Virus record (IMG/VR): IMGVR_UViG_2571042621_000026
Direction: 5' to 3' (one strand)
DNA length: 40,800 nt
Source: a virus
Taxonomy: Duplodnaviria; Heunggongvirae; Uroviricota; Caudoviricetes
Both the position numbers and the translations under genes were made by a program. The notes under the pieces are model-generated. The model was not told where the DNA came from. It worked only from the letters and a program-made list of their open reading frames with translations, and made no database searches. Of this stretch, positions 1-40,800 are shown piece by piece (within the stretch, counting starts at the first letter, position 1; each line of letters starts with the position of its first letter).

Positions 1-270
<270 letters not shown>

Positions 271-475
271 TTACCGTTAAATCATTTTAAAATCAGTAAG
301 TTGTATCGAGTTTGTATGCTTTACTGTCATTAACTTACTGTATGTTGATCCAGTGTATTTAACCTTGATAAACTCAGTCCAGCAACACAAAACCGCAACA
401 CATTGCATTTTGTCCCGTAGAAAAGACTTGTATGTGTGAGCTTGTTTTCTGCGCCTACGCAGATAAGGATTGAGA

Positions 476-1873
476 ATGCCGCGCACTGTAACACATAATC
501 CGGATAGCCCCAATAATGACGATGTTTTAGCCGCATCTGAAAAATGGGACGCCTGTAAACCCCCCTATACCAGCGCACACATGAAAATCTGTGTTGCTGC
601 CGCCAAAATCATCCTCGCTGCTTCCGGCGTGGCTCGCCGTTCCAAATACGAAAAAGAGAACTATCTCCGTATCGATTTCAGCAAAGCCGGTAAGGTTACA
701 TTTTACGCCGAGTTTCCAAAAAAGATGGGCCTCAAGGGTAAAAAGCTCGGCGAGTGGCCGGAGCTCGCTATCCAGCTGGCGCGCGAAAAAGCACTAGGTA
801 TGGCTGACGGTGGACTGCGGGCAGAGTCCGTACATGCAGCGCTGGAAATGTACCGGGATGACCTCAAAGCCAAAGTAGCCCGTCAGAAGCTGAGCCCGGA
901 CAGTTTCACAACCTACGGGGTGCGTATCGACCGGATTAAATCAACGTTCGGCGAGCGCGAGGTGTTCAGCGACGTAACATACAGTCGGCTGGTGGAAGTG
1001 CTGGACGAGTGGATCGCCACTCGCTCGAACAATAACGCCCTGGAGTTGTTTGCCGAGCTCCGTCGGTTCTGGAAGTTCTGCGCACCTACTCTTTGCAACG
1101 GCCGCAATGTTGCCGCCAGTCTGCCAGATGATTATGTTTCCTCCCGCGTACAGAAACCTACCCCCACACGGCTTTTTACCGATATTGAATCAATCGCCCG
1201 ACTCTGGCTCAATGTTGCTGCCTGCACCTCTGTACACCAGAAGAATGCTGTTCGCTTCATGATCATCACTGGTGTTCGTCCGATTAATGTCCATAACCTG
1301 CGCTGGGACTACGTTCACGAGGAGGCTGGTGAAATTGTTTATCCGGAAGGGGTTATCGGCATGCGAGGGGCTATGAAAACACAAAAGGCTTTCCGCCTGC
1401 CGATAACGCCTGAGATCCGGCGGATTATCGACGAGCAGAAAGCCTGGCGTGATTCAGTTCCTGAGTGCAACAGGGATTATGTATTTTTGCAGCCACGTGA
1501 TCCAATGCAGCCATTTTCAAAACGATCACTGGATAAGCTGGTGAAAACATACAGCCCGGACGGGGCTGTAAAAGGAATAAAACATGATGGGACTGTTAAA
1601 GGGAAAGACGGTGCATTTAATACGATGTGCCGTAAATTCCTTAAGAGCAATGTTATTGCCTTGATGAAGGAAAGAGGCTATTCCCGCTCAGACCGAAGGG
1701 AAATCAGCCTCCTTTGCCTTCACCACTCCAGCAAGTCAGATGACCCGATGGCAGAACATTACGACTTTTCTGATGAGATTTTACAGGAAGAGATTGCGTT
1801 GAAGCGCGAAGCTTTCGAGGCTCACGAGCGGAGCATACTTGCGCAGGTGGCATTGCTACGGCGGCGAGGTTAA
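476..1873 (+). CDS. int: Tyrosine-type site-specific integrase
   Basis: 466-aa ORF next to the host junction, with an N-terminal arm-binding-like region and a C-terminal region with His and Tyr residues consistent with a tyrosine recombinase. The six-frame ORF begins at a TTG at 470; the first ATG is at 476. The true start could be further downstream. Confidence 0.8.
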   Translation: MPRTVTHNPDSPNNDDVLAASEKWDACKPPYTSAHMKICVAAAKIILAASGVARRSKYEKENYLRIDFSKAGKVTFYAEFPKKMGLKGKKLGEWPELAIQLAREKALGMADGGLRAESVHAALEMYRDDLKAKVARQKLSPDSFTTYGVRIDRIKSTFGEREVFSDVTYSRLVEVLDEWIATRSNNNALELFAELRRFWKFCAPTLCNGRNVAASLPDDYVSSRVQKPTPTRLFTDIESIARLWLNVAACTSVHQKNAVRFMIITGVRPINVHNLRWDYVHEEAGEIVYPEGVIGMRGAMKTQKAFRLPITPEIRRIIDEQKAWRDSVPECNRDYVFLQPRDPMQPFSKRSLDKLVKTYSPDGAVKGIKHDGTVKGKDGAFNTMCRKFLKSNVIALMKERGYSRSDRREISLLCLHHSSKSDDPMAEHYDFSDEILQEEIALKREAFEAHERSILAQVALLRRRG

Positions 1874-2070
1874 TACTGGCTGCGACATTTTTGAATAAAA
1901 GCGTCGACATTTCGGCGCTCATAACGAACTACTTTTGCACTGAAACGAATTGGTGCCAGGATAGCCCGATGACGATGCTTAATATTCCACTCACATAGCG
2001 TTTTCTGTGTAATACCTAACTTTTGGCATACTTCATCCGGGGTGAGTAAATCGTCGGGTTTCTCGCTCAT
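1870..2070 (-). CDS. AlpA-family excisionase / prophage transcriptional regulator
   Basis: 66-aa ORF with an HTH-like segment (LTPDEVCQKLGITQKTL). Its ATG overlaps the stop of the upstream helicase gene (ATGA), and it converges on int. Confidence 0.65.
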   Translation of the reverse strand: MSEKPDDLLTPDEVCQKLGITQKTLCEWNIKHRHRAILAPIRFSAKVVRYERRNVDAFIQKCRSQY

Positions 2071-3458
2071 GCTATACCTCTCTTTTTCATGGCATCGAGC
2101 AGGATGTCCTGCACTGTTCGTTTTGAGTTGCGCCGCTCCATCACCATTTCGTCCATAGTGTCGGCAGCAATAATGTGGTGAATAAATACCGGACGATTGT
2201 GTCCGGCCTGTATCTGTCTGGTTGGGCCGATACGTTCAATAATTTGCTGATATTGCTCCAGGTCCCACCAGTGTGAGAAAAATACCAGTATATTTCCGCC
2301 GTCCTGCATGTTCAGACCGTGGCCCGCGCTGGCTGGGTGTGCAAAGAGAACAGGAATCTTTCCGGAATTCCAGTCACGTAGTGTCTGTGGATCCTGGTCG
2401 AGGTGACGACCGCGAGGAAATGCTTTAAGCAAGCGTTCAAGATCGTGTTTCCAGTGATAAGCAACCAGCACAGGTGCGCCAGCTGCTTCGGTCAGTATGC
2501 TGTCCAGCGCCTGTAGTTTGGTGTCATGCAGTTCTGACCAACTTCCGGTGTCATCTGTGTATACTGCGCCGCTGGCGATTTGCAGACACTTCAGTGTCTT
2601 TGCCGCGGCGTTCGGTGCTTCGATGCCTTCGCCATTCAGCTCGAGGTACATTTCCTTTTCCATTTCACGATACTGCTGACGGGCCTTCGGCGGCATATCC
2701 ACGCGGATTACGTTATGGATGGGGTCTTTGATATCGAACCAGTCGGCCGCATCCAGCGAGAGGGTCACATCGGCTAACGCTCGCTGTATTTCACCCTGTG
2801 AGTGAGCAAAAGGCTCCAGTTTGGTCCAGCTCTGCCCCGGAAACTGTATCGATTTGAACCAGCGTGAGGTAAACGCGCCGTAAGTGCGCCCGAGACGTTG
2901 CCCCTGGTCCACAAACCACGATTGTCCCCACAAATCTACCAGGCCGTTCGGTGCTGGCGTACCGGTGAGATTTATCCAGCGCCGGACATACTTGTGCGCC
3001 ACTTTGCCCAGCGCCGCCGCGCGCTTACCACCACCTCGCAGCCGGAAGGATTTTAGCCGGGTGCTTTCATCTGGAATGACAGTACCGAACGGCCATCGTT
3101 CTCCCAATTCTTCAACCAGCCAGACAAGGTTATCGTAGTTGATTGTGAACACGCTCGCGTTGCTGTTCGCCAGCGCTGTAGAGCGCGCTTTGGCGTTACC
3201 GATGATCGGCTGTACCTCAATATTACGCAGATGCCCCCATTTAACAGCTTCATCAGGCCAAGTGCTTGCTGCAACGCGTAGCGGCGCGAGGACCAGCGCG
3301 GGGCGTGTTTCTGCTCCAGCCATGAAAAGATCTTCCAGCGTGGTGAGTGTCGCTACGGTTTTACCCATCCCCATCCCTGCCCAGATGTTGCCGCGCAGGG
3401 GCTCGATTTGATGATTGATGATGAGATCTTGGTAGGGACGTGGTTTAAAAGTTATCAT
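2067..3458 (-). CDS. SNF2/DEAD-like superfamily II helicase (phage replication)
   Basis: 463 aa with Walker A (GMGKT) and a DExx box (VIPDESTRLKS), plus a C-terminal helicase domain. ATG at 3456-3458. Confidence 0.75.
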   Translation of the reverse strand: MITFKPRPYQDLIINHQIEPLRGNIWAGMGMGKTVATLTTLEDLFMAGAETRPALVLAPLRVAASTWPDEAVKWGHLRNIEVQPIIGNAKARSTALANSNASVFTINYDNLVWLVEELGERWPFGTVIPDESTRLKSFRLRGGGKRAAALGKVAHKYVRRWINLTGTPAPNGLVDLWGQSWFVDQGQRLGRTYGAFTSRWFKSIQFPGQSWTKLEPFAHSQGEIQRALADVTLSLDAADWFDIKDPIHNVIRVDMPPKARQQYREMEKEMYLELNGEGIEAPNAAAKTLKCLQIASGAVYTDDTGSWSELHDTKLQALDSILTEAAGAPVLVAYHWKHDLERLLKAFPRGRHLDQDPQTLRDWNSGKIPVLFAHPASAGHGLNMQDGGNILVFFSHWWDLEQYQQIIERIGPTRQIQAGHNRPVFIHHIIAADTMDEMVMERRNSKRTVQDILLDAMKKRGIA

Positions 3459-4213: not shown

Positions 4214-4483
4214 TCACAATATCCCCTCTAAATTTTTGCTATCCAGTACTACCACGGTAAAGCCTAGCTTTCGCAGACGTTCATGCTCGCGCAACTGGTC
4301 AGGCCGTGGTGGCTTGCCGGGAGATTTACATTCAACGAAAACGAGACGGCCGCCGGGTAGCAGAACAATGCGATCTGGTACCGAGCGGCGACCAGGTGAT
4401 ATGAACTTAAAGGCGACCCCACCAGCCTTTTTCACTTCGGCGACGAGATGCTTCTCGATTAGGTTTTCACGTTCATAGGACAT
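4214..4483 (-). CDS. VRR-NUC domain nuclease
   Basis: About 89 aa with a PD-(D/E)XK-like core (GGRLVFVECKSPGKPPRPDQL). The ATG at 4483 is chosen; the ORF could extend to the ATG at 4510. Confidence 0.6.
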   Translation of the reverse strand: MSYERENLIEKHLVAEVKKAGGVAFKFISPGRRSVPDRIVLLPGGRLVFVECKSPGKPPRPDQLREHERLRKLGFTVVVLDSKNLEGIL

Positions 4484-4772
4484 CTGAATCCCACTCTTCA
4501 AAAAGCACATTCAATTCCAGTTTCTCTGCCAACGCGTTTTCTGCACGTGCGCCGGCAGAGTACTCCCACTCTTTGAGCATATAAATCGTATCGGCACAGC
4601 GAAGCATTGCGAGGCAGATGTCCATGTACTGAGCCTGTGTCAAACTATTGGGTAAAGTTGCGGGGTTAAGCACAACATATCCCTTGTCCGTTAGCCTCTT
4701 TGCTGCGGAATGAAAGGCCGGGCGGTTAAATTGCTCGTAACCGCTCATTGGCCCGGCAACGTAAACGATCAT
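4473..4772 (-). CDS. DUF4406-like protein (nucleoside 2-deoxyribosyltransferase-like fold)
   Basis: 99 aa with the N-terminal VYVAGPMSG motif characteristic of this family. ATGA overlap with the upstream gene. Confidence 0.5.
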   Translation of the reverse strand: MIVYVAGPMSGYEQFNRPAFHSAAKRLTDKGYVVLNPATLPNSLTQAQYMDICLAMLRCADTIYMLKEWEYSAGARAENALAEKLELNVLFEEWDSDVL

Positions 4773-4984
4773 TCTTCGACCGCCTTACGCTTTTCACGCA
4801 TATTCTGCATCAGGCAAAAATCAGATCTGCGTTCACTCCATTCCTGATTCAGTTCGTGATGTGATTCGCGGTTGGCTTTTGCCCAGACCTCCGCTGCCCG
4901 GTCATATTCGCCGGATTGTTCAAGTCGCAAAGCTTCCCTTGCAGCCCTGTAATAAAGTGGATTGTCCCGGTATTTAAATGACAT
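4769..4984 (-). CDS. Small hypothetical protein (possibly an ANR-like regulator)
   Basis: 71-aa ORF packed between the polymerase and the DUF4406 gene with overlapping start/stop. No recognisable catalytic motif. Confidence 0.4.
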   Translation of the reverse strand: MSFKYRDNPLYYRAAREALRLEQSGEYDRAAEVWAKANRESHHELNQEWSERRSDFCLMQNMREKRKAVEE

Positions 4985-4989
4985 AGGAG

Positions 4990-7053
4990 TTAATCCTTAC
5001 GGTAGTGGTACGCCTCAAAACCGCCAGCGTTCAGTGGGATATCGGGCGCCCATTCGGGGTTAGTGGAGAGAAGTGCGGAAAGCGCTTTATCGTTGAAATC
5101 TTCTGTGTCAGGTGCTTCGGTGATCACCTCGTCGTGTACCGTCAGCACAATGCTGTAACCGGCATCTTCGATAAGCGGCATGTTTCCGGCCAGAATGTCG
5201 CGGGCGGCCGCCTGGGTGATGTTCTCCACCAGCTTTCCGCCGTAGGTTTTGAGTCGTTGCCATTTACGCGAATAAGAGTTAACCCCCATGTAGGTGATAT
5301 TCCCTTTTTCGATAACCGGAGACGGGTAGCATACAGCGCGTCCGGATGGTAGCTGTATGCGCAGCCACGCGCCATCGCGGCGGATTTTAAGATAACCGCA
5401 ATACAATGTTTTTTGCGGTGTGGCGATTGCAGTGCGGACGGTGCGCTCCAGTTCGTACCAGAAATCACAGGTCGCGGGATGCGCCCGGCGCCAGAGACGT
5501 TTAAGTGAGTCGCAGGCGATAAATACCCGTTCAGAAAGCCCGTAGGTTGACTTGCGTTTAACCGATTCGTCGTACCAGCTTTTCGCCTCGCGGATAACAT
5601 CGCGGGGAATGTTTGGTAGTGCGGCGTTCGCCAGCTCGTCGAGATCGAGACCGTAAACCAGTGCAAAAGTGATGAAGGCCGACACACCACCACCATAACC
5701 CAGACCGAGTTCCATGACTTTACCGATCTGACGCATGTGTTTATCAACATCATCTGGTGCAATATCGAAAGCTTTTGCATACGCCAGTTTATATAAGTCC
5801 GGACCCGTTCCGGCGTCGTACTCTCTGAATGCATTCAGTTTCCATTCTTCTCCTGCCAGCCATGCCAGCATACGGCCTTCAATGTTCGACAAGTCACTTA
5901 CCACCAGTTTTTTGCCTGTTGGCGCGATAATGCAGCCACGTAACGCTGAACTGGTTAGTTCCATGATATTGTCAAACAGCAGGTCTGCACATCCGGCTTT
6001 CAGTGCTTCGATGCCTTCGTCTATTTGTTCCTGTTTTAGTGAAGGGCGGGGAAGATTCTGGGGCTGGAATAGCCGTCCGGCCCAACGACCGGTACGTGAC
6101 GCCCCGCAGAACTGTAGCGTACCGCGTAAGCGCCCGTCGTGGCTTACGCCTTTCATCAGTGCCTTGTATTTACTGGTGCTGGTAGTACTGGCCTGCAGTC
6201 GGATAGCCAGCAGTTCTTTCACGGCAGATGGTAAATCGGGGTCGGCAATACGACGTTCCAGAGTACTGCGTTGCATGTCTGGTAGCTCCACACCGTAGGA
6301 TTCAACAATGTGCTTAATCAACGCGTCTCGTTGTGTGGCTGCCTGCACTTCGCCATCAGTCATTTCCTGTGTACGCTTTGCTAGGCGCTTTTGTTCCTGG
6401 TCTACCGCTTCGATCGCAGCGCGTGCGAGTTGCATGTCCATGCAGACGCCCCGGTCATTGATCTGCTGATCACGATGCCAGAGCGCCAGTTCTGTCCCCT
6501 GATAATTCCACTTCGGCAGACGTTTATAGACTTCGCGCATTGCCTCGATATCCAGTCCGGCGTAAGCAACAAAGCGCCGCCATTCTTCCGGGTGGGTTTT
6601 ACTGGTGGCCCGACGCAGTTTGCTGTTTTTCGGGCGTGGCTTACAGAACAGCTGGATCAGCGCTTTACCTTCTTTGTCCTTCGCTTTGTCTTGCGGGACG
6701 CCTAGTACTTCGCAGAGTTCCCCCAGAGACCCCGGGAGACCGTGCGCCAGCGCCTGCACCATCGTGTCGCGCCAACGTTCGACTGGCGGTGCCAGTCGCG
6801 GCATTGCATAACGCAGAACGGTGCGGTCGAAGTGAGAGTTATGGAAATAAAGCAGGGTTTCAGGGTCTGCGATTGCTTCGTATAAGCCGTGTGGAATACC
6901 ACCACCGGCAGTGATATCCCACACGTTTACTGGCCCGTCGTTGATAGCCCATGCGAAAAGCATCACTTCAACGCCTTCGGCATACGCATGGGTACCGTTG
7001 TTGATCGGAATGTCACAATAGGTTTCCAGGTCGCCCCATAGTATATTGGACAT
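4990..7053 (-). CDS. Family A DNA polymerase (Pol I-like, with 3'-5' exonuclease domain)
   Basis: 687 aa with an N-terminal exonuclease-like region and a C-terminal polymerase region. Strong SD (GAGGA) 8 nt upstream of the ATG at 7053. Confidence 0.85.
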
Positions 7054-7114
7054 AAAATATCCTCATATGGTATATGGTTAAATGCTAGATATCATGAATT
7101 AAAGGAGACAACTA

Positions 7115-7804
7115 ATGACTGTGGGTAATAAGAGACAGCCTAATGGATTACCTGAATATTATTGTCACCGTGGTAACGACATAAAAGATGCGATAGTTCG
7201 GGATTTTATTATTCAGCCTGTTGCACACCTGAAACTTATTACTGGACAAACTAAAACCAGTTATTCCGGTTATCCGTTAACCGATCAGTACTATTGTTTT
7301 TCATTTAAAAAACGCTCTGATGAAAATTGTACAGGGGCTTTTTTCTGTGGTAGAGATGTTGCAAAGGATTTCATTCGGCGTATCGGTTGTACAGAGCTGC
7401 CGTTATTTAATCCTATGAAATCGGATACCAGTGCAGCAATAGAACGTTCCGGTTCTGGCTCAGGTAGTTCTGGTATTACTGTCAAGCCAAATGCTGACAA
7501 AAAGCTATTTATAGACGCAGCTCGTCTGTTAATGACGCTGTGGGATTCAACAAGTAAGGGACAAACCCCACTGGCGTCGGTTCTTAATGAAGCAATTTCT
7601 GGTGGTATAGATAAACCTCCAGAAATTAGACATGTAGTGGCGGTTAATACAATGTTGGGTAACACAAAAAATACTTTAACTGGTTTGCTGGATAAAGCAA
7701 GAGCGAAGTATCCTGATGTGTTATTCAGAGATTTTGATTTCACGCCTCTTAACGAGATTGTAAAACGTTCAAAATCATATAATAAGCATCCCCCTTGTTA
7801 TTGA
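7115..7804 (+). CDS. Hypothetical protein, two-domain, Cys-rich N-terminus (moron)
   Basis: 229-aa ORF with a strong SD (AAAGGAGA) 6-7 nt upstream of the ATG. Low GC by eye. Opposite strand to the early operon. An internal GSGSGSSG linker separates two domains. Confidence 0.6.
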   Translation: MTVGNKRQPNGLPEYYCHRGNDIKDAIVRDFIIQPVAHLKLITGQTKTSYSGYPLTDQYYCFSFKKRSDENCTGAFFCGRDVAKDFIRRIGCTELPLFNPMKSDTSAAIERSGSGSGSSGITVKPNADKKLFIDAARLLMTLWDSTSKGQTPLASVLNEAISGGIDKPPEIRHVVAVNTMLGNTKNTLTGLLDKARAKYPDVLFRDFDFTPLNEIVKRSKSYNKHPPCY

Positions 7805-8439
7805 GTATCAGACACTGTATTGGTAGGAAGGCCTATCATTTCATTTAATGTCTCTCGATGTACTGCTGGTGCTAAAGGGACTGGCGGTGCGTCTGTTGGA
7901 AGCAGTTCTTTAGCTTCGGGCCATACATCCAGTAATCGTTTTACTGTCCGAACTTTATTTAGAGCCGCGCTGACATTCTGTATGATTTCGGTTTCATCAC
8001 TTTTAATTTGTGTGTAGAGAGCATCAAAGCTATAAAACTCCGTTACCAGAGGATCTTCGCCAAGTAGAGTAAATTCTGCAGGTGCTATTTTATTAATATG
8101 CTCGGGGGCTCCTGATTCATAACCTCTGTAGTTGCCATTGAAATAAATGTTTGCTCTGGCTCCAGCCAGATTGAGATATATGCAGCAATCTTTTCGAATT
8201 AAAGAACTATTGGTTTTTAATGCTTCGGGTAATTTTGATACCAGTGTTTCTATTTTTTTTATATTTTTTAATATTTCAGCGTCTTTCTCTACGCCCCCGA
8301 TAGCTGCAAGCCGAACACGTTCGGCCCATTCAACACGAGCAGCTCGTAGTGCTGATTTACGTTTGGGGATACCCGCTTTCTCAAGTGCGTTATTGATGAT
8401 TTGAGTTTTAAGGTGATTAGTTAATACGGGCTGTGACAT
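7798..8439 (-). CDS. Hypothetical protein (low-GC accessory gene)
   Basis: 213 aa from the ATG at 8439, which has GAGGGA upstream; the ORF could extend to 8469. Its 3' end overlaps the convergent 7115..7804 gene by 7 bp. Confidence 0.55.
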   Translation of the reverse strand: MSQPVLTNHLKTQIINNALEKAGIPKRKSALRAARVEWAERVRLAAIGGVEKDAEILKNIKKIETLVSKLPEALKTNSSLIRKDCCIYLNLAGARANIYFNGNYRGYESGAPEHINKIAPAEFTLLGEDPLVTEFYSFDALYTQIKSDETEIIQNVSAALNKVRTVKRLLDVWPEAKELLPTDAPPVPLAPAVHRETLNEMIGLPTNTVSDTQ

Positions 8440-8490
8440 TATTCTTTCCCTCATGAGATACCCCAGCACGTAGCTGGGGGATGAATATTT

Positions 8491-9039
8491 TTAAATCAGT
8501 GCTTCAGCATCAGCACCTTCGCTGATATCGTCGAAATCGTCAGCGCTTGCCACTCCGCCGCCAGCGAATGCATCGCCGTCTCGCAGGAACTGGACTCCGC
8601 CGAGTGAGGCATTAATGCGTTTACCGAAATTATTGTCCTGTGCCCAGATATCGATAACGGCGTTTACATAGCACCCTGCATAGGGACGTCCATCAGCCTG
8701 AATTAGTGGCGAACGATCGCGATCAAGAACAGCTGGGCGCGCTTTGTTAGCAGCGTTCAGGAAGAAATTGCCGGGAAAGCCTTCATACTCTGCTTTTTCA
8801 TCACCATCATGCAGGCACAGATTGAGTTTTTTCTCCAGCTGGTTATAAATGGACTCCCACTTCTCCCCCCATTTTTCCTTCGCTACCTGCTTCATAGCTT
8901 TACGGATTTCTTCCAGTTGTGGGTGTTTGGGAGACATTAAAAATACTGCGGAGAAACGCGGATCGCCTTCGCCGTTTACAGTTTTAGCTTCAAACAGAGA
9001 CGGGAAGGCCAGACGAACATTGTTCAGCTTCAGTTTCAT
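8491..9039 (-). CDS. DUF2815-like phage single-stranded DNA-binding protein
   Basis: 182 aa with an acidic C-terminal tail (DDFDDISEGADAE) typical of SSB partner-binding tails. AAGGA SD. Sits in the replication operon beside the polymerase. Confidence 0.6.
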   Translation of the reverse strand: MKLKLNNVRLAFPSLFEAKTVNGEGDPRFSAVFLMSPKHPQLEEIRKAMKQVAKEKWGEKWESIYNQLEKKLNLCLHDGDEKAEYEGFPGNFFLNAANKARPAVLDRDRSPLIQADGRPYAGCYVNAVIDIWAQDNNFGKRINASLGGVQFLRDGDAFAGGGVASADDFDDISEGADAEALI

Positions 9040-37049: not shown

Positions 37050-37897
37050 TGGCAAAAAATGACTTTAAAGCATTCGCAACGGGTAAAAATGCCAATGTTA
37101 TGTCGCAGGAGGAATGGGAAGCGTTGCCTGCGCTTTTATCCGGATTTACAGCAGGGAAAGCATCCAGTGCGCAAGTCAATAAGGTTATTCGGCAGGCCAG
37201 CTTTATTGCTGCAGCTCTGGCCCAGTTTGTAAGTGACAAAACGCAACGGGATGTGCTTGATAATGGTGATCTGCCCGGTTTTGTTGAATTGCTGGGATCG
37301 GGGTTTGCTGTTGAATACCTGAGCCGCAAGAATCCGTTTGGTGATATCAAATCGGATGGCACGGTGAAAACGGCTCTCGAAAACCTTGGTTTGGGAGAAG
37401 GCTCTGCATTACCTGTCGGTGTGCCTGTTCCGTGGCCTTCCGCTACTCCGCCGACAGGCTGGCTGAAATGCAATGGTGCGGCTTTTTCTGCTGAAGAATA
37501 CCCGGAACTGGCAAAGGCTTACCCGACAAATAAATTGCCTGATTTACGCGGTGAATTTATTCGTGGCTGGGATGATGGGCGTAGTGCGGATGCGGGGAGA
37601 ACAATATTATCCGCTCAGGGCGATGCCATACGTAATATCTATGGTGAGTTCAAGACTGTAAACACCGAAAATTATTCAATATGGGAATCAGTAGGCTCGT
37701 TTAAGGGGGCAGTGGTGCCTTTGAACCCCTCAACGAACAATAGTTATTTCTCCTTAGTCAGAAGTATGGTGACAGAAAGGTCCGAGGGCGGTGTTTACCC
37801 AAAAGTGATTGGCCTTGATGCTTCAAGAATTGTTCCAACTGCAAACGAAAATCGACCCCGTAACATTGCCTTTAATTATATCGTGAGGGCTGCCTGA
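37049..37897 (+). CDS. Tail fibre protein (constant N-terminus outside, variable C-terminus inside the invertible segment)
   Basis: 282 aa from the ATG at 37049; the six-frame ORF starts at 37031. A gix-like site lies at codons about 109-117 (LENLGLGE). The C-terminal region resembles a receptor-binding domain. Confidence 0.75.
37374..37399. repeat. Left gix-like recombination site of the tail-fibre invertible segment
   Basis: CTCTCGAAAACC-TT-GGTTTGGGAGAA. 15 bp (37386..37400) are an exact inverted copy of 38984..38998. Confidence 0.6.
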
Positions 37898-38502
37898 TGG
37901 ATAAAGCTATATTAAATAAGGAACTCATCGCCACAAAGGCGGGAGATATTACCGTTTATAATTATGATGGTGAAACACGAGAATATATTTCCACATCAAC
38001 CGAATATCTTGCTGTGGGTGTCGGTATCCCGGCATGTTCCTGTTTAGATGCTCCTGGCTCATATAAAGCTGGTTATGCAATTTGCCGTTCTGCAGATTTT
38101 AACTCATGGGAATATGTGCCAGACCATCGCGGTGAAATCGTCTATAGCACCGAAACAGGAGAATCAAAAGAAATCACAGCTCCGGGTGATTACCCTGAAA
38201 AGACAACCACTATCGCCCCGTTAACGCCATACGATAAATGGGATGGTGAGAAATGGGTGACGGATACCGAGGCACAGCATAGAGCAGCAGTAGACATGGC
38301 AGAAACACAGCGGCAGTCGCTGATTGATGCTGCAATGGTTTCCATTAGTCTGATTCAACTGAAATTGCAGGCCGGGCGGAAGCTGACGCAGGCAGAAAAC
38401 ACCCGACTTAACGCCGTGCTGGATTACACTGACGCGGTGATGGCAACAGATACCAGCACCGCGTCAGATGTCATCTGGCCAGTTCCTCCTGAGACGGTTT
38501 AA
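37897..38502 (+). CDS. Tail fibre assembly protein (Tfa / U-like)
   Basis: 201 aa immediately downstream of the tail fibre gene. Confidence 0.7.
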   Translation: MDKAILNKELIATKAGDITVYNYDGETREYISTSTEYLAVGVGIPACSCLDAPGSYKAGYAICRSADFNSWEYVPDHRGEIVYSTETGESKEITAPGDYPEKTTTIAPLTPYDKWDGEKWVTDTEAQHRAAVDMAETQRQSLIDAAMVSISLIQLKLQAGRKLTQAENTRLNAVLDYTDAVMATDTSTASDVIWPVPPETV

Positions 38503-38692
38503 TCTCAATCAGAATGGGTTCTCCCTTCTCGTTAACAGATATTTCCATTCCTTCAGGGATTTCAGATGCAGTAAAAAACCAGTTATCTTCTGGTAATTCA
38601 ACAGCCCCGGTCACGTCATGAAGACCGGGGATTACTTCAGTCAAAGTAACAGGATTAAACAGGCGCACAATAAACCCTCCAGGAAAAAGCAT
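38471..38692 (-). CDS. Alternative (inverted-orientation) tail fibre assembly/chaperone candidate (U'-like)
   Basis: 73-aa minus-strand ORF inside the invertible segment, downstream of the alternative fibre C-terminus. Unusually short. Confidence 0.35.
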   Translation of the reverse strand: MLFPGGFIVRLFNPVTLTEVIPGLHDVTGAVELPEDNWFFTASEIPEGMEISVNEKGEPILIEIKPSQEELAR

Positions 38693-38998
38693 TTATTGAT
38701 GGTGTTCCGTCGTACATCTGGCAGCGGACATAAAAACCGGTATTAGTGACCTGGTCATCCACGATCATTGAAACGTGAACGTTATTAGATGTGCCCCCAT
38801 AATCCGATCCTATTCTTTCCGCTATGCTGATAAAACGTGAAAGCTTAGGTAGCGCAATTGGATAAACGACTTTAGCCAGTCCATTATCATTAGAACCCCC
38901 CGTTCCAAAGACTTCTATTGCACCATCTGACCAGCGTATCCACGCACCATTGGCATTAGCTCCTCGCTGAATGACATATCTGGCTTCTCCCAAACCAA
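38655..38998 (-). other. Alternative tail-fibre variable C-terminal coding segment (S'v-like)
   Basis: Minus-strand reading frame that runs through the right gix site (...VGLGE|ARYVIQRG...). After inversion it would be fused to the constant part of the fibre gene. Confidence 0.5.
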
Positions 38999-39010
38999 CG
39001 TTTATGAAAA
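38985..39010. repeat. Right gix-like recombination site
   Basis: TTCTCCCAAACC-AA-CGTTTATGAAAA. Resembles the Gin/Hin/Cin/Pin crossover-site consensus as recalled, and is inverted relative to the left site. Confidence 0.6.
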
Positions 39011-39064
39011 TGAAGAAATAACAAGCAAATGGCATCATTCCTGCTTTTACTAGGGGGATCCACC

Positions 39065-39379
39065 ATGCTTATTGGCCACGTACGCGTATCAACAAATGAC
39101 CAGAACACCGATCTACAACGTAATGCGTTGAACTGTGCAGAATGCGACCGGATTTTTGAAGACAAGATAAGCGGTACAAAGTCCGAAAGGCCGGGACTGA
39201 AAAAACTGCTCAGGACATTATCGGCAGGTGACACTCTGGTTGTCTGGAAGCTGGATCGGCTGGGGCGCAGTGTGCGGCATCTTGTCGTGCTGGTGGAGGA
39301 GTTGTGCGAACAAGGTGTTAATTTTAGTAGTTATGTTATTACAGGTGGGGGATTTCTCCCCCTTATGCAGATTTTCTAG
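39065..39379 (+). pseudogene. Truncated Gin/Pin/Hin-family serine DNA invertase (catalytic N-terminus only)
   Basis: MLIGHVRVSTNDQNTDLQRNAL...DTLVVWKLDRLGRS... resembles invertase residues 1 to about 88. The similarity ends after GVNF and the ORF stops 17 codons later, so the C-terminal HTH DNA-binding domain is missing. Confidence 0.7.
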
Positions 39380-39383
39380 TTAA

Positions 39384-40232
39384 CTATTGGCGAAGTGGCC
39401 ATATTTTTCTGTTTTTTAAAAAACTATCTTCAACTATATAACTGCAACAATGTTCACTAAGGCCATAAAAACTAATTATTCCATATTTATGAGAAGCTAT
39501 ATCAGACAGTTCTGCTAATACTGTGGCAAGCCAACGAGCGATGCTAAGAGAATAGAATCTTCCCCACTTTTGAACAATGGTATTTTGTCCAGTACGGATG
39601 GAGGATGATATAAGGTCTTGCATAATGTTGGTACTTTCATTCATATACATGACCGTTGTATACGGTGAAAGAGTGGCATTGATAAACCTAGCATTTTCTT
39701 CAACACGTCTTTGTTCAACTGTATAATAATAATAATGTTTTTCAAGGATACTCTCGGCTACTTCTCCCCACCATTTATTAATAGGTTCATTATTGGTTAA
39801 ATTGGGGCTGCTTAATGAGGAGAAATTTGCGTAACGTCCCCGTCGGGCATCAGCAAAGGAATCTAAACATTCAAGTATTTTGTAGGTAATTTTATGTGTA
39901 GGACGTGAATATCTCAGAGATAGTTGCATTTTTTTAGAAATACTATCAACCTCGTTGGTTAATTCAATGAGCTTATGTCCAAATTTTCTTACAATATTCT
40001 CGTCAGGCATTTTCCCTTTGTGTTCAATGGAATAGTGTGCAACAAGTATTAGTTTAGCAAGTCTCTCAAAACCTACAGAAAGCCCAAAAAATGCTGTGTA
40101 ATATTCACCTATTTTGTCTGCATAATTGGCTTTACCTATGGCTGTTGCCCCAGAACCAATGAGCTGTGTAACTAAAGATGCTTCTCGGCCCAGAGCGTGC
40201 CATGCTGGAATATCCCAGGGATTTTTATTCAC
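39384..40232 (-). CDS. Hypothetical protein in the AT-rich cargo block
   Basis: 282-aa ORF. GTG start at 40232 with AAGGA 10 nt upstream. Low GC. No motif recognised. Confidence 0.5.
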   Translation of the reverse strand: MNKNPWDIPAWHALGREASLVTQLIGSGATAIGKANYADKIGEYYTAFFGLSVGFERLAKLILVAHYSIEHKGKMPDENIVRKFGHKLIELTNEVDSISKKMQLSLRYSRPTHKITYKILECLDSFADARRGRYANFSSLSSPNLTNNEPINKWWGEVAESILEKHYYYYTVEQRRVEENARFINATLSPYTTVMYMNESTNIMQDLISSSIRTGQNTIVQKWGRFYSLSIARWLATVLAELSDIASHKYGIISFYGLSEHCCSYIVEDSFLKNRKIWPLRQ

Positions 40233-40360
40233 TTTATTATTTTCCTTTGCTCATAAATTTAAATTGTTTGAGTATCTCATAAAATATAGGGAGGTGGTTA
40301 AGGTTGTTGATCGCATATAATAGCTATTGAAAGTCAAGAACTCGGTTTTATGTTCTACCA

Positions 40361-40399
40361 CTAATTAATATATTGTGAGTCTGACAATATATTAATTAG
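40361..40399. promoter_or_regulatory. Perfect 16-bp inverted repeat, candidate operator
   Basis: CTAATTAATATATTGT-gagtctg-ACAATATATTAATTAG in the intergenic region upstream of the 282-aa gene. Confidence 0.4.
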
Positions 40400-40533
40400 T
40401 ATGATCAAACCAGCCATCAACTGATTCCTTGTATCTTTCAGAGTCTCCAGAACAAAAGCCTTAACGAATTCCTTATTTGTGAGTGCCTTACCAAAAGCCC
40501 ATTGTTGCAGGGAACGAGTATAAAACTCGCCAG

Positions 40534-40800
40534 CTACTGGAGCAGGCTACCTGATTGTCGATCGATTCCTGCGTCCATATAGTCGATGGTCTTCTGGAGC
40601 TCTTCGATTAGGGCAATAGCTTTTGCTCGAGAAATGCATATTAGTTGATCCGGAAATTCTTGTAAGGGCCAGTTTGGTATACAGGCCATGTTATCAGTGA
40701 AGGATGCAGACAAGTAAACTTCATTGGTAACTAGGGAATAGCTTACCTCAAAATTGGTGAGTTCCGGCAAACTGCTAACGTTTGATTCTTTTCTGCGCAT
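40534..40800 (-). CDS. Hypothetical protein, possibly 5'-truncated by the window edge
   Basis: 88-aa minus-strand ORF whose ATG coincides with the last 3 bases of the window. AT-rich. Confidence 0.35.
   Translation of the reverse strand: MRRKESNVSSLPELTNFEVSYSLVTNEVYLSASFTDNMACIPNWPLQEFPDQLICISRAKAIALIEELQKTIDYMDAGIDRQSGSLLQ

Follow-up and report, generated by a model that had tools for sequence, protein, structure and literature searches.

The stretch of DNA considered here, IMG/VR virus record IMGVR_UViG_2571042621_000026 (40,800 nucleotides (nt), hereafter called the window), raises a question at its right end. There the gene for a Pin/Gin-type serine invertase breaks off and DNA rich in adenine and thymine (AT) takes over, carrying a gene for a protein of 282 amino acids (aa). 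What is this block of DNA, and what might its gene do? A preliminary description of the window had proposed that cargo had replaced the 3' half of the invertase gene, and that the block was a two-gene, palindrome-regulated candidate for an undescribed defence or abortive-infection system. Comparison with related prophages, database searches and structure prediction directly yielded the boundaries of the replacement, the size and conservation of the protein family, the similarity of its modelled fold to HEPN domains, and its genomic associations. These results point to a single acquired gene that is probably related to defence and is a candidate for a stand-alone HEPN-like abortive-infection effector.

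An acquired block at the right end of a prophage in yfhL

The window was 99.8% identical to Escherichia coli 97-3250 (NZ_CP027599.1), and it spans the 3' end of yfhL, a prophage of ~40.8 kb, and the DNA up to ~300 base pairs (bp) before yfhH. The prophage carries genes for a tyrosine integrase, a LexA-like repressor and a DNA-polymerase/primase/helicase replication module, together with a lambda-type Q antiterminator, lysis genes and a myovirus tail whose tail-fibre segment is invertible. This temperate E. coli myovirus, integrated in yfhL, is neither Mu-like nor P2-like, the two types to which its right end had at first been likened. In many E. coli strains the same yfhL site holds a related prophage. 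The 18-mer core of the left attachment site, attL (Table 1), recurs in identical form as attR 208 bp past the window end in 97-3250, beside an orphaned copy of the yfhL start. Because these two cores bracket it, the AT-rich block lies inside the prophage, close to attR, and an origin as host DNA outside the prophage was ruled out on the same ground.

Alignment with related prophages whose invertase genes are intact, a comparison suggested in the preliminary description, placed the boundaries of the insertion at 39332-40518. In strain O55:H7 CB9615 the right end of the prophage consists of the tail-fibre genes, an intact pinE (182 aa), a gene for a 215-aa hypothetical protein on the minus strand, an 88-aa open reading frame (ORF), also on the minus strand, attR and yfhH. 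Nucleotide homology to CB9615 pinE, as determined with BLAST, stops at window position 39331, which corresponds to pinE nt 267; similarity to invertases had been reported to end near 39330. Homology to the sister prophages, again by BLAST, restarts at 40519, with 95.7% identity to CB9615 and 95.4% to IAI1. Between these points 1045 bp was lost, comprising the 3' half of pinE and the 215-aa gene, and 1187 bp was gained. The content of guanine and cytosine (GC) is 36.2% in the block versus 50.2% for prophage positions 262-39331, and the GC profile drops from about 0.45-0.55 to 0.34-0.39 within it. An AT-rich block had thus been correctly recognized, but it stops at 40518, where the backbone resumes, and does not continue to the window end as had been supposed.

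Of 5426 complete E. coli genomes, 43 carried the cargo block, among them Shiga toxin-producing E. coli (STEC) strains of O26 and O111. The right-arm stretch beyond the block was found in about 124 complete E. coli genomes; these include the 43 with the cargo and about 80 without the cargo gene. The junctions were identical in all 43 complete-genome carriers, in four IMG/VR contigs, in three GenBank 'phage' records and in every near-identical copy from public assemblies, which points to one ancestral event. Any other E. coli context for the cargo was ruled out, every near-identical copy being in the same slot. In sister prophages the slot holds alternative cargo, namely an Acyl_transf_3 acyltransferase and a serine acetyltransferase. 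The block is not conserved phage backbone; it is almost certainly acquired cargo with the boundaries given above. The proposal that horizontally acquired DNA replaced the 3' half of the invertase gene, in a variable slot near the right end of the prophage, is therefore upheld.

The exchange is best explained by one illegitimate recombination event, in which the 3' half of pin and the 215-aa accessory gene were swapped for an AT-rich fragment of 1187 bp. The donor of this fragment was most likely a lambdoid-type accessory region, of which a dinI-like 3' end and its trailing hairpin have been retained, and the fragment brought in one intact, self-contained gene.

The 282-aa protein, its family and its neighbourhoods

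The 282-aa protein had been described as containing no recognized motif, and no annotated family was matched, housekeeping families included. Searches of Pfam, NCBIfam and PADLOC gave no match, and the PHROGs search returned a single match at chance level (phrog_8664, E 0.027). Scanning sets of 39 and 55 family members with Pfam and PADLOC yielded chance-level matches only, and the PADLOC-DB v2.0.0 models, among them the 145 embedded PDC candidates of Payne et al. (10.1101/2024.01.29.577857), were matched neither by the protein nor by its family members. A literature search with the accessions WP_001039129 and WP_001039127 found no paper mentioning either, and neither is listed in the DefensePredictor supplements.

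Relatives of the protein are numerous and uniform in length. A search of sequences clustered at 90% identity gave 513 relatives, all named 'hypothetical' and all of about 280 aa. A profile search of 1.84 billion cluster representatives recovered 959 clusters (50% identity) at E<=1e-3 and 695 at E<=1e-10, and nearly all of the 959 were 265-290 aa long with a single matched stretch. A scan of species-representative genomes identified 54 loci with 43-73% identity, distributed among Gamma- and Alphaproteobacteria, Mycobacterium, Nitrospinota, Fibrobacteraceae, Chloroflexota, Longimicrobiaceae and a relative of Desulfovibrionaceae. Such a wide spread over taxa, combined with retention of sequence, marks a gene that moves horizontally while under strong constraint.

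Conservation was counted over 110 full-length cluster representatives. Residues E56, K60, H86, Y134 and W154 were present in all 110, R133 in 109, E17 and R57 in 108 each, R233 in 107 and N136 in 102; several of these form the motifs E56-R57-x-x-K60 and R133-Y134-x-N136. This degree of conservation excludes a reading of the cargo gene as decaying junk. A length variation within the gene was also observed, in which the (ATA)4 repeat listed in Table 1 leads to an in-frame difference in a run of tyrosines. The window protein has YYYY and 282 aa, and the protein of 97-3250 and most database copies has YYY and 281 aa; both alleles are common.

The AlphaFold2 model of the protein, built on 39 homologues, was all-helical, with a mean predicted local distance difference test score (pLDDT) of 80.9 and a predicted template modelling score (pTM) of 0.82; residues 1-10 and 135-146 were its weak segments. 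The model contains a four-helix up-and-down bundle with the HEPN topology. Similar folds were seen in the HEPN-like C-terminal domains of ANT(6) (2pbe) and LinB (3jyy), in YutE (1ylm), AF0298 (2hsb) and TT1696 (1ufb), in the HEPN toxins 7ae2, 5yep and 8xdj, and in Csm6, AbiV (9bj5), sacsin, AbiA and Roquin. In the member scans, the top sub-threshold Pfam match, PF18728 HEPN_AbiV (E 0.0087, in one of 55 members), and the commonest sub-threshold PADLOC match, CARF_HEPN_mCpol (E 0.014, in two of 55), were to HEPN models as well. HEPN ribonucleases (RNases) are marked by an Rx4-6H motif with a near-invariant arginine, located where the last core helix begins. In the present family, invariant H86 lies at the N-terminus of helix 88-101 of the model, like the HEPN histidine, and the basic residue before it is lysine in 54 and arginine in 49 of the 110 representatives, mostly with x3 spacing. 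We accordingly describe the protein as HEPN-like and do not class it among the canonical HEPN RNases. Its assignment as a HEPN-type RNase is tentative, and we rate it somewhat below an even chance.

The neighbourhoods of the homologues provide a second line of evidence. Ten of the 54 species-representative loci, and likewise a JGI contig (L020), have the gene embedded in a Type I restriction-modification (R-M) operon in the order hsdM-hsdS-[gene]-hsdR, with gaps of 4-19 nt before hsdR. In the Robiginitomaculum example, hsdM occupies positions 4341-6662, hsdS 6659-7984 and the gene 7986-8840, with hsdR starting from 8845. One more locus, the eleventh, retains an hsdR fragment. In islands of Enterobacter and Klebsiella the gene stands directly downstream of a different hsdR (25% identity to the hsdR of the embedded loci) and before an integrase. 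A P2-like prophage of Serratia carries it in the gpA-portal slot, with a PvuII R-M system alongside; in Chromohalobacter it lies 3.5 kb from the Thoeris ThsA/ThsB genes, and in Klebsiella variicola it is found at a prophage end, adjoining SRAP (YedK-family) and umuDC-like genes. The nearest ORFs of the 43 hsd-free loci include Druantia DruD/DruE, two Fic/SoFic proteins, a defence-type reverse transcriptase, AAA_21/AriA-like ATPases and IS110 transposases, plus housekeeping genes. The window copy itself has no hsd genes nearby and is unlinked to any R-M system. No conserved partner gene was found among the homologue loci examined, which argues that the gene is self-sufficient. In three of the ten embedded loci an ORF of ~203 aa separates hsdS from the HEPN-like gene (positions 7380-7991 in L038, and the equivalent position in L068 and L080). 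These ORFs share 57-58% identity among the three loci, have no Pfam match, and may represent a lineage-specific second embedded gene.

The HEPN-like fold and the repeated placement in or beside R-M and other defence loci make it probable that the gene is defence-related. A candidate defence or abortive-infection system had been proposed for the block, and this is still the best-supported reading, but with one gene in place of two. In its specific form, a stand-alone HEPN-like abortive-infection effector, we consider the reading evenly poised, and the defence role, nuclease activity, substrate, trigger and latency that it entails are what we infer. A lysogen would express a nuclease-type effector that is normally latent and that would be switched on by a component or a consequence of infection by another phage. 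The active effector would cleave RNA, most plausibly tRNA or another RNA of translation, and this cleavage would halt the infection with loss of the cell. The relatives embedded between hsdS and hsdR would serve as a back-up resembling PrrC, firing once the Type I restriction enzyme has been neutralised.

Several results weigh against this interpretation. No HEPN sequence profile from Pfam, NCBIfam or PADLOC was significant with the window protein, and none from Pfam or PADLOC with the family members. The profile and fold searches called for in the preliminary description gave a HEPN-like model fold but no Pfam or PADLOC match; Foldseek found nothing at E<0.4 in the PDB or in BFVD, which holds viral protein structures, and three alignments used as profiles against PDB sequences produced chance matches only (E<=10). 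In place of the canonical Rx4-6H the family has [K/R]x3-4H. The Hsd proteins of the ten embedded loci are related (60-91% identity), and the loci may for this reason stem from few independent events. Many homologues are solitary among housekeeping genes, and the neighbour survey of the 43 loci, made without a control set, is only suggestive.

In a more novel reading, the family would be an unrecognized class of single-gene immune effectors. In this alternative, which we regard as doubtful, a HEPN-like scaffold would carry a different active site (E17, E56-R57-x-x-K60, H86, R133-Y134-x-N136), with chemistry or a substrate unlike that of classical HEPN RNases; its members would guard the Type I enzyme when embedded and act autonomously in prophages.

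It is unlikely that the gene is instead a mobile accessory gene with a non-defence or selfish role, such as an addiction-type toxin, a modulator of superinfection or lysogeny, or an anti-defence factor, and that its neighbourhoods reflect a general dumping of cargo in variable slots. Such a gene would suit a slot that in sister prophages holds an acyltransferase (Acyl_transf_3) and a serine acetyltransferase, as well as the many homologues among housekeeping genes and the failure of every PADLOC model to match, whereas a position between hsdS and hsdR in at least 10 genera, a second and unrelated Type I association, and the P2 gpA-portal slot beside an R-M system would be hard to obtain by random dumping. 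No antitoxin-like partner gene accompanies the gene, and an anti-defence gene inside the host's own R-M operon would be counter-selected.

The missing Rx4-6H motif and the tight coupling within hsdS-[gene]-hsdR operons could also be accommodated by a non-catalytic HEPN-like module that binds a ligand or a protein, for example a sensor or regulator of the Type I complex (restriction alleviation, subunit assembly or anti-restriction sensing), of which the prophage copy would be an orphan. We hold this to be quite improbable. The function cannot depend on the Type I enzyme, since Hsd genes are absent from the vicinity of most family members (44 of the 54 loci, and the window copy among them); the invariant E/E-R-K/H/R-Y/W set resembles a catalytic or tight ligand-binding site, and wide horizontal spread as a single gene suits an autonomous function.

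Remnants, hairpins and the flanking prophage

The features of the locus are collected in Table 1. Read on the minus strand, the block consists of the junction at 40519/40518, the dinI-like remnant, the palindrome, the AT-rich region, the 282-aa gene, the hairpin and the junction at 39332/39331.

Table 1. Coordinates of features in the window.
Feature	Position	Strand	Description
attL core TTCACACATATCACAATT	214..231		18-mer within the yfhL 5' end
Truncated Pin/Gin-type serine invertase gene	39065..39331	+	N-terminal catalytic domain only, about 89 codons
Foreign cargo block	39332..40518		1187 bp, 36.2% GC; from sister-prophage comparison
GC-rich hairpin GGGGGAtttcTCCCCC (GGGGGA-tttc-TCCCCC)	39347..39362		6-bp stem, 4-nt loop
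Cargo gene, 282-aa protein	39384..40232	-	GTG start; only cargo gene of the block
(ATA)4 repeat in the cargo gene	39723..39734	-	TAT (Tyr) codons on the coding strand
AT-rich upstream region of the cargo gene	40233..40359	-	127 bp; sigma-70-like hexamers, AGGA Shine-Dalgarno
Near-perfect palindrome	40360..40400		17-bp perfect arms, 7-nt spacer
Frameshifted 3' remnant of dinI-like gene	40392..40516	-	Similarity to phage dinI
Conserved prophage right arm, non-cargo	40519..40800	-	Includes the 88-aa ORF (40534-40800); homology to CB9615 and IAI1

A leader of 300 bp with a perfect 16-bp palindrome had been assigned to the 282-aa gene. The palindrome is real and longer than stated, but the leader is in part the remnant of another gene, about 120 of its 286 bp being dinI-like. 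This remnant is about 75% identical in nucleotide sequence to dinI from phage mEp460 and from Stx phages. Its translations ...FVLETLKDT... and ...ESVDGWFDHTN* align with the C-terminus of DinI, for which the mEp460 counterpart is ...FVQETLKDTWESADEWFVH*, and its stop codon (40394-40392) falls within the right arm of the palindrome. The palindrome occurs once in the window and appeared in none of 100 shuffles; as RNA it has a folding energy of -20.1 kcal/mol (z -5.6). Among IMG/VR viral contigs it was found in this prophage lineage only, it was not found beside distant homologues of the cargo gene, and an Rfam search of 38900-40800 gave no family match. A second operator copy and a transposon end were both considered for the palindrome and ruled out, as it is present in a single copy, has no flanking repeats and adjoins the dinI remnant. 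Most simply, its sequence and position suggest that it is the hairpin that trailed dinI in the lambdoid-type donor. Regulation of the block by the palindrome, as first proposed, was not borne out by these comparisons; the palindrome could in principle regulate the cargo gene, but nothing found here supports this.

The 88-aa ORF upstream, which had been counted as cargo, belongs to the prophage backbone. It matches phrog_17793 (E 5.8e-46), a group of unknown function, has no Pfam or PADLOC match, adjoins attR and is conserved in the prophage lineage, about 80 complete genomes having it without the cargo. A two-gene system formed by the 282-aa protein and this ORF with the palindrome as operator is very improbable: in its favour, the two ORFs share the minus strand and lie about 300 bp from each other on either side of the palindrome, but the 88-aa ORF and everything from 40519 onward are common to prophages without the 282-aa gene, no such partner accompanies any homologue examined elsewhere, the palindrome is tied to dinI as described above, and the block contains no repressor gene.

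The AT-rich region upstream of the cargo gene contains candidate promoters, for example TCAACA-16-TATATT at 40310-40283, which are consensus matches only. A five-codon upstream ORF was also observed there on the minus strand (40236-40253; ATG AGC AAA GGA AAA TAA, encoding MSKGK*); it overlaps the Shine-Dalgarno region and stops 4 nt before the GTG start. At the other end of the gene, the GC-rich hairpin reported at the left junction is present, 16 nt inside that junction and 21 nt 3' of the stop codon of the 282-aa gene. Its minus-strand RNA has a folding energy of -14.6 kcal/mol (z -2.9). It was rejected as a clear intrinsic terminator, the minus strand being without a U-tract, and from its sequence a terminator role is plausible only.

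The ORF of the truncated invertase, which starts at 39065, runs on through foreign DNA as far as 39379. Its residues 3-89 match Pfam Resolvase (PF00239) at profile positions 2-98 of 145, which agrees with the abrupt end of invertase similarity noted earlier, and it also matches phrog_125, DNA invertase (E 2e-44). The Prokaryotic Genome Annotation Pipeline (PGAP) calls the ORF at 39065 a recombinase pseudogene without a C-terminus. Pin/Gin enzymes combine a catalytic resolvase domain with a C-terminal helix-turn-helix, and here the C-terminal half has been replaced. The truncated protein cannot function because it has part of the catalytic domain only and its DNA-binding half is gone; on its sequence, it is a remnant and not a functional member of the family. 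The tail-fibre segment (~37377-38984) was found in either orientation among carriers of the identical truncation (L021 and L024 from IMG/VR, and L086-L089), so inversion postdates the loss of the invertase. This implies inversion by a Pin-family invertase acting in trans from another prophage, or recombination between prophages.

Two further observations concern the site and its database records. The prophage in the 5' end of yfhL provides a replacement N-terminal coding segment and start codon, and the original yfhL start persists as the orphaned copy at attR (window 214-261 and L001 14106-14155). GenBank record ON470588.1 (L025, 'Escherichia phage vB_EcoM-611R5', 'complete phage genome') runs beyond attR into the host genes yfhH, pgpC and tadA. 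Because it includes these host genes, it is an extraction of a prophage region and not a packaged genome, and its ends should not be read as phage termini.

Relation to known systems and significance

The closest worked example for the proposed mechanism is HepS of the Salmonella prophage Gifsy-1. HepS is a solo HEPN protein that is expressed constitutively as an inactive tetramer; it is activated by the tail-tip protein J of infecting siphoviruses and then cuts tRNA anticodon loops (PMC13043305). Compared by description, HepS has the canonical R100-x4-H105 with proven cleavage and a proven trigger, whereas the window protein has [K/R]x3-4H and other invariant residues. The LT2 Gifsy-1 candidate STM2620 was not HEPN-like, and the HepS gene was not evident there.

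The nuclease domain of PrrC is assigned to HEPN, and PrrC steps in as a back-up when a phage inhibits the restriction enzyme. In their work on 'guilt-by-embedding', Payne et al. (10.1101/2024.01.29.577857) cite PrrC as a system that is nearly always found inside Type I R-M operons and show that genes embedded in this way usually belong to defence; TgvAB of Vibrio cholerae is a further embedded example (PMC11411939). Embedded homologues of the window gene stand where PrrC does in the operon, between hsdS and hsdR, although the window copy is not linked to R-M genes. PrrC and RloC also differ in being larger, with an N-terminal ABC-type/P-loop ATPase domain, whereas the window protein has 282 aa, is all-helical and has no NTPase motif or Pfam match. 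AbiV and the Abi-type HEPN family (PF18728) do not match the window protein, which is about 80-130 residues longer and has an extra C-terminal helical half. The HEPN proteins paired with a minimal nucleotidyltransferase (MNT) antitoxin (4nqf, 1ylm, 7ae2, 5yep) have 130-150 aa, and no such partner stands beside any family member examined.

Temperate phages are known to carry variable accessory genes in 'moron' slots such as the P2 hotspots (PMC9122126). The slot described here is likewise variable, lies beside conserved phage genes and holds alternative cargo in sister prophages, and one homologue is in the gpA-portal slot of the Serratia P2-like prophage. It differs in being located between the tail-fibre invertase gene and attR of a myovirus that integrates in yfhL, and in that a phage gene, pin, was destroyed, the insertion not being intergenic. 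The cargo gene is of an already known kind, a solo HEPN-like defence candidate in a prophage accessory slot that is embedded in R-M operons elsewhere, but its family is unnamed and its conserved residues are non-canonical.

For the phage, the exchange was a trade in which the enzyme that switches its tail fibres was given up for the cargo, along with a resident accessory gene, and the lineage is still widespread. The cargo gene is a solid, well-delimited candidate for a defence screen, and the non-canonical invariant residues make it useful for probing the limits of divergence in the HEPN active site. If the prediction is true, a family annotated as 'hypothetical protein' across many phyla would gain a function, another solo HEPN-type abortive-infection protein of prophages would stand beside HepS, and a second PrrC-like back-up effector would be found wired into Type I restriction operons. 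Should the family instead prove to be a new effector class, it would constitute a new and widespread defence family, with about 960 clusters at 50% identity in at least six phyla.

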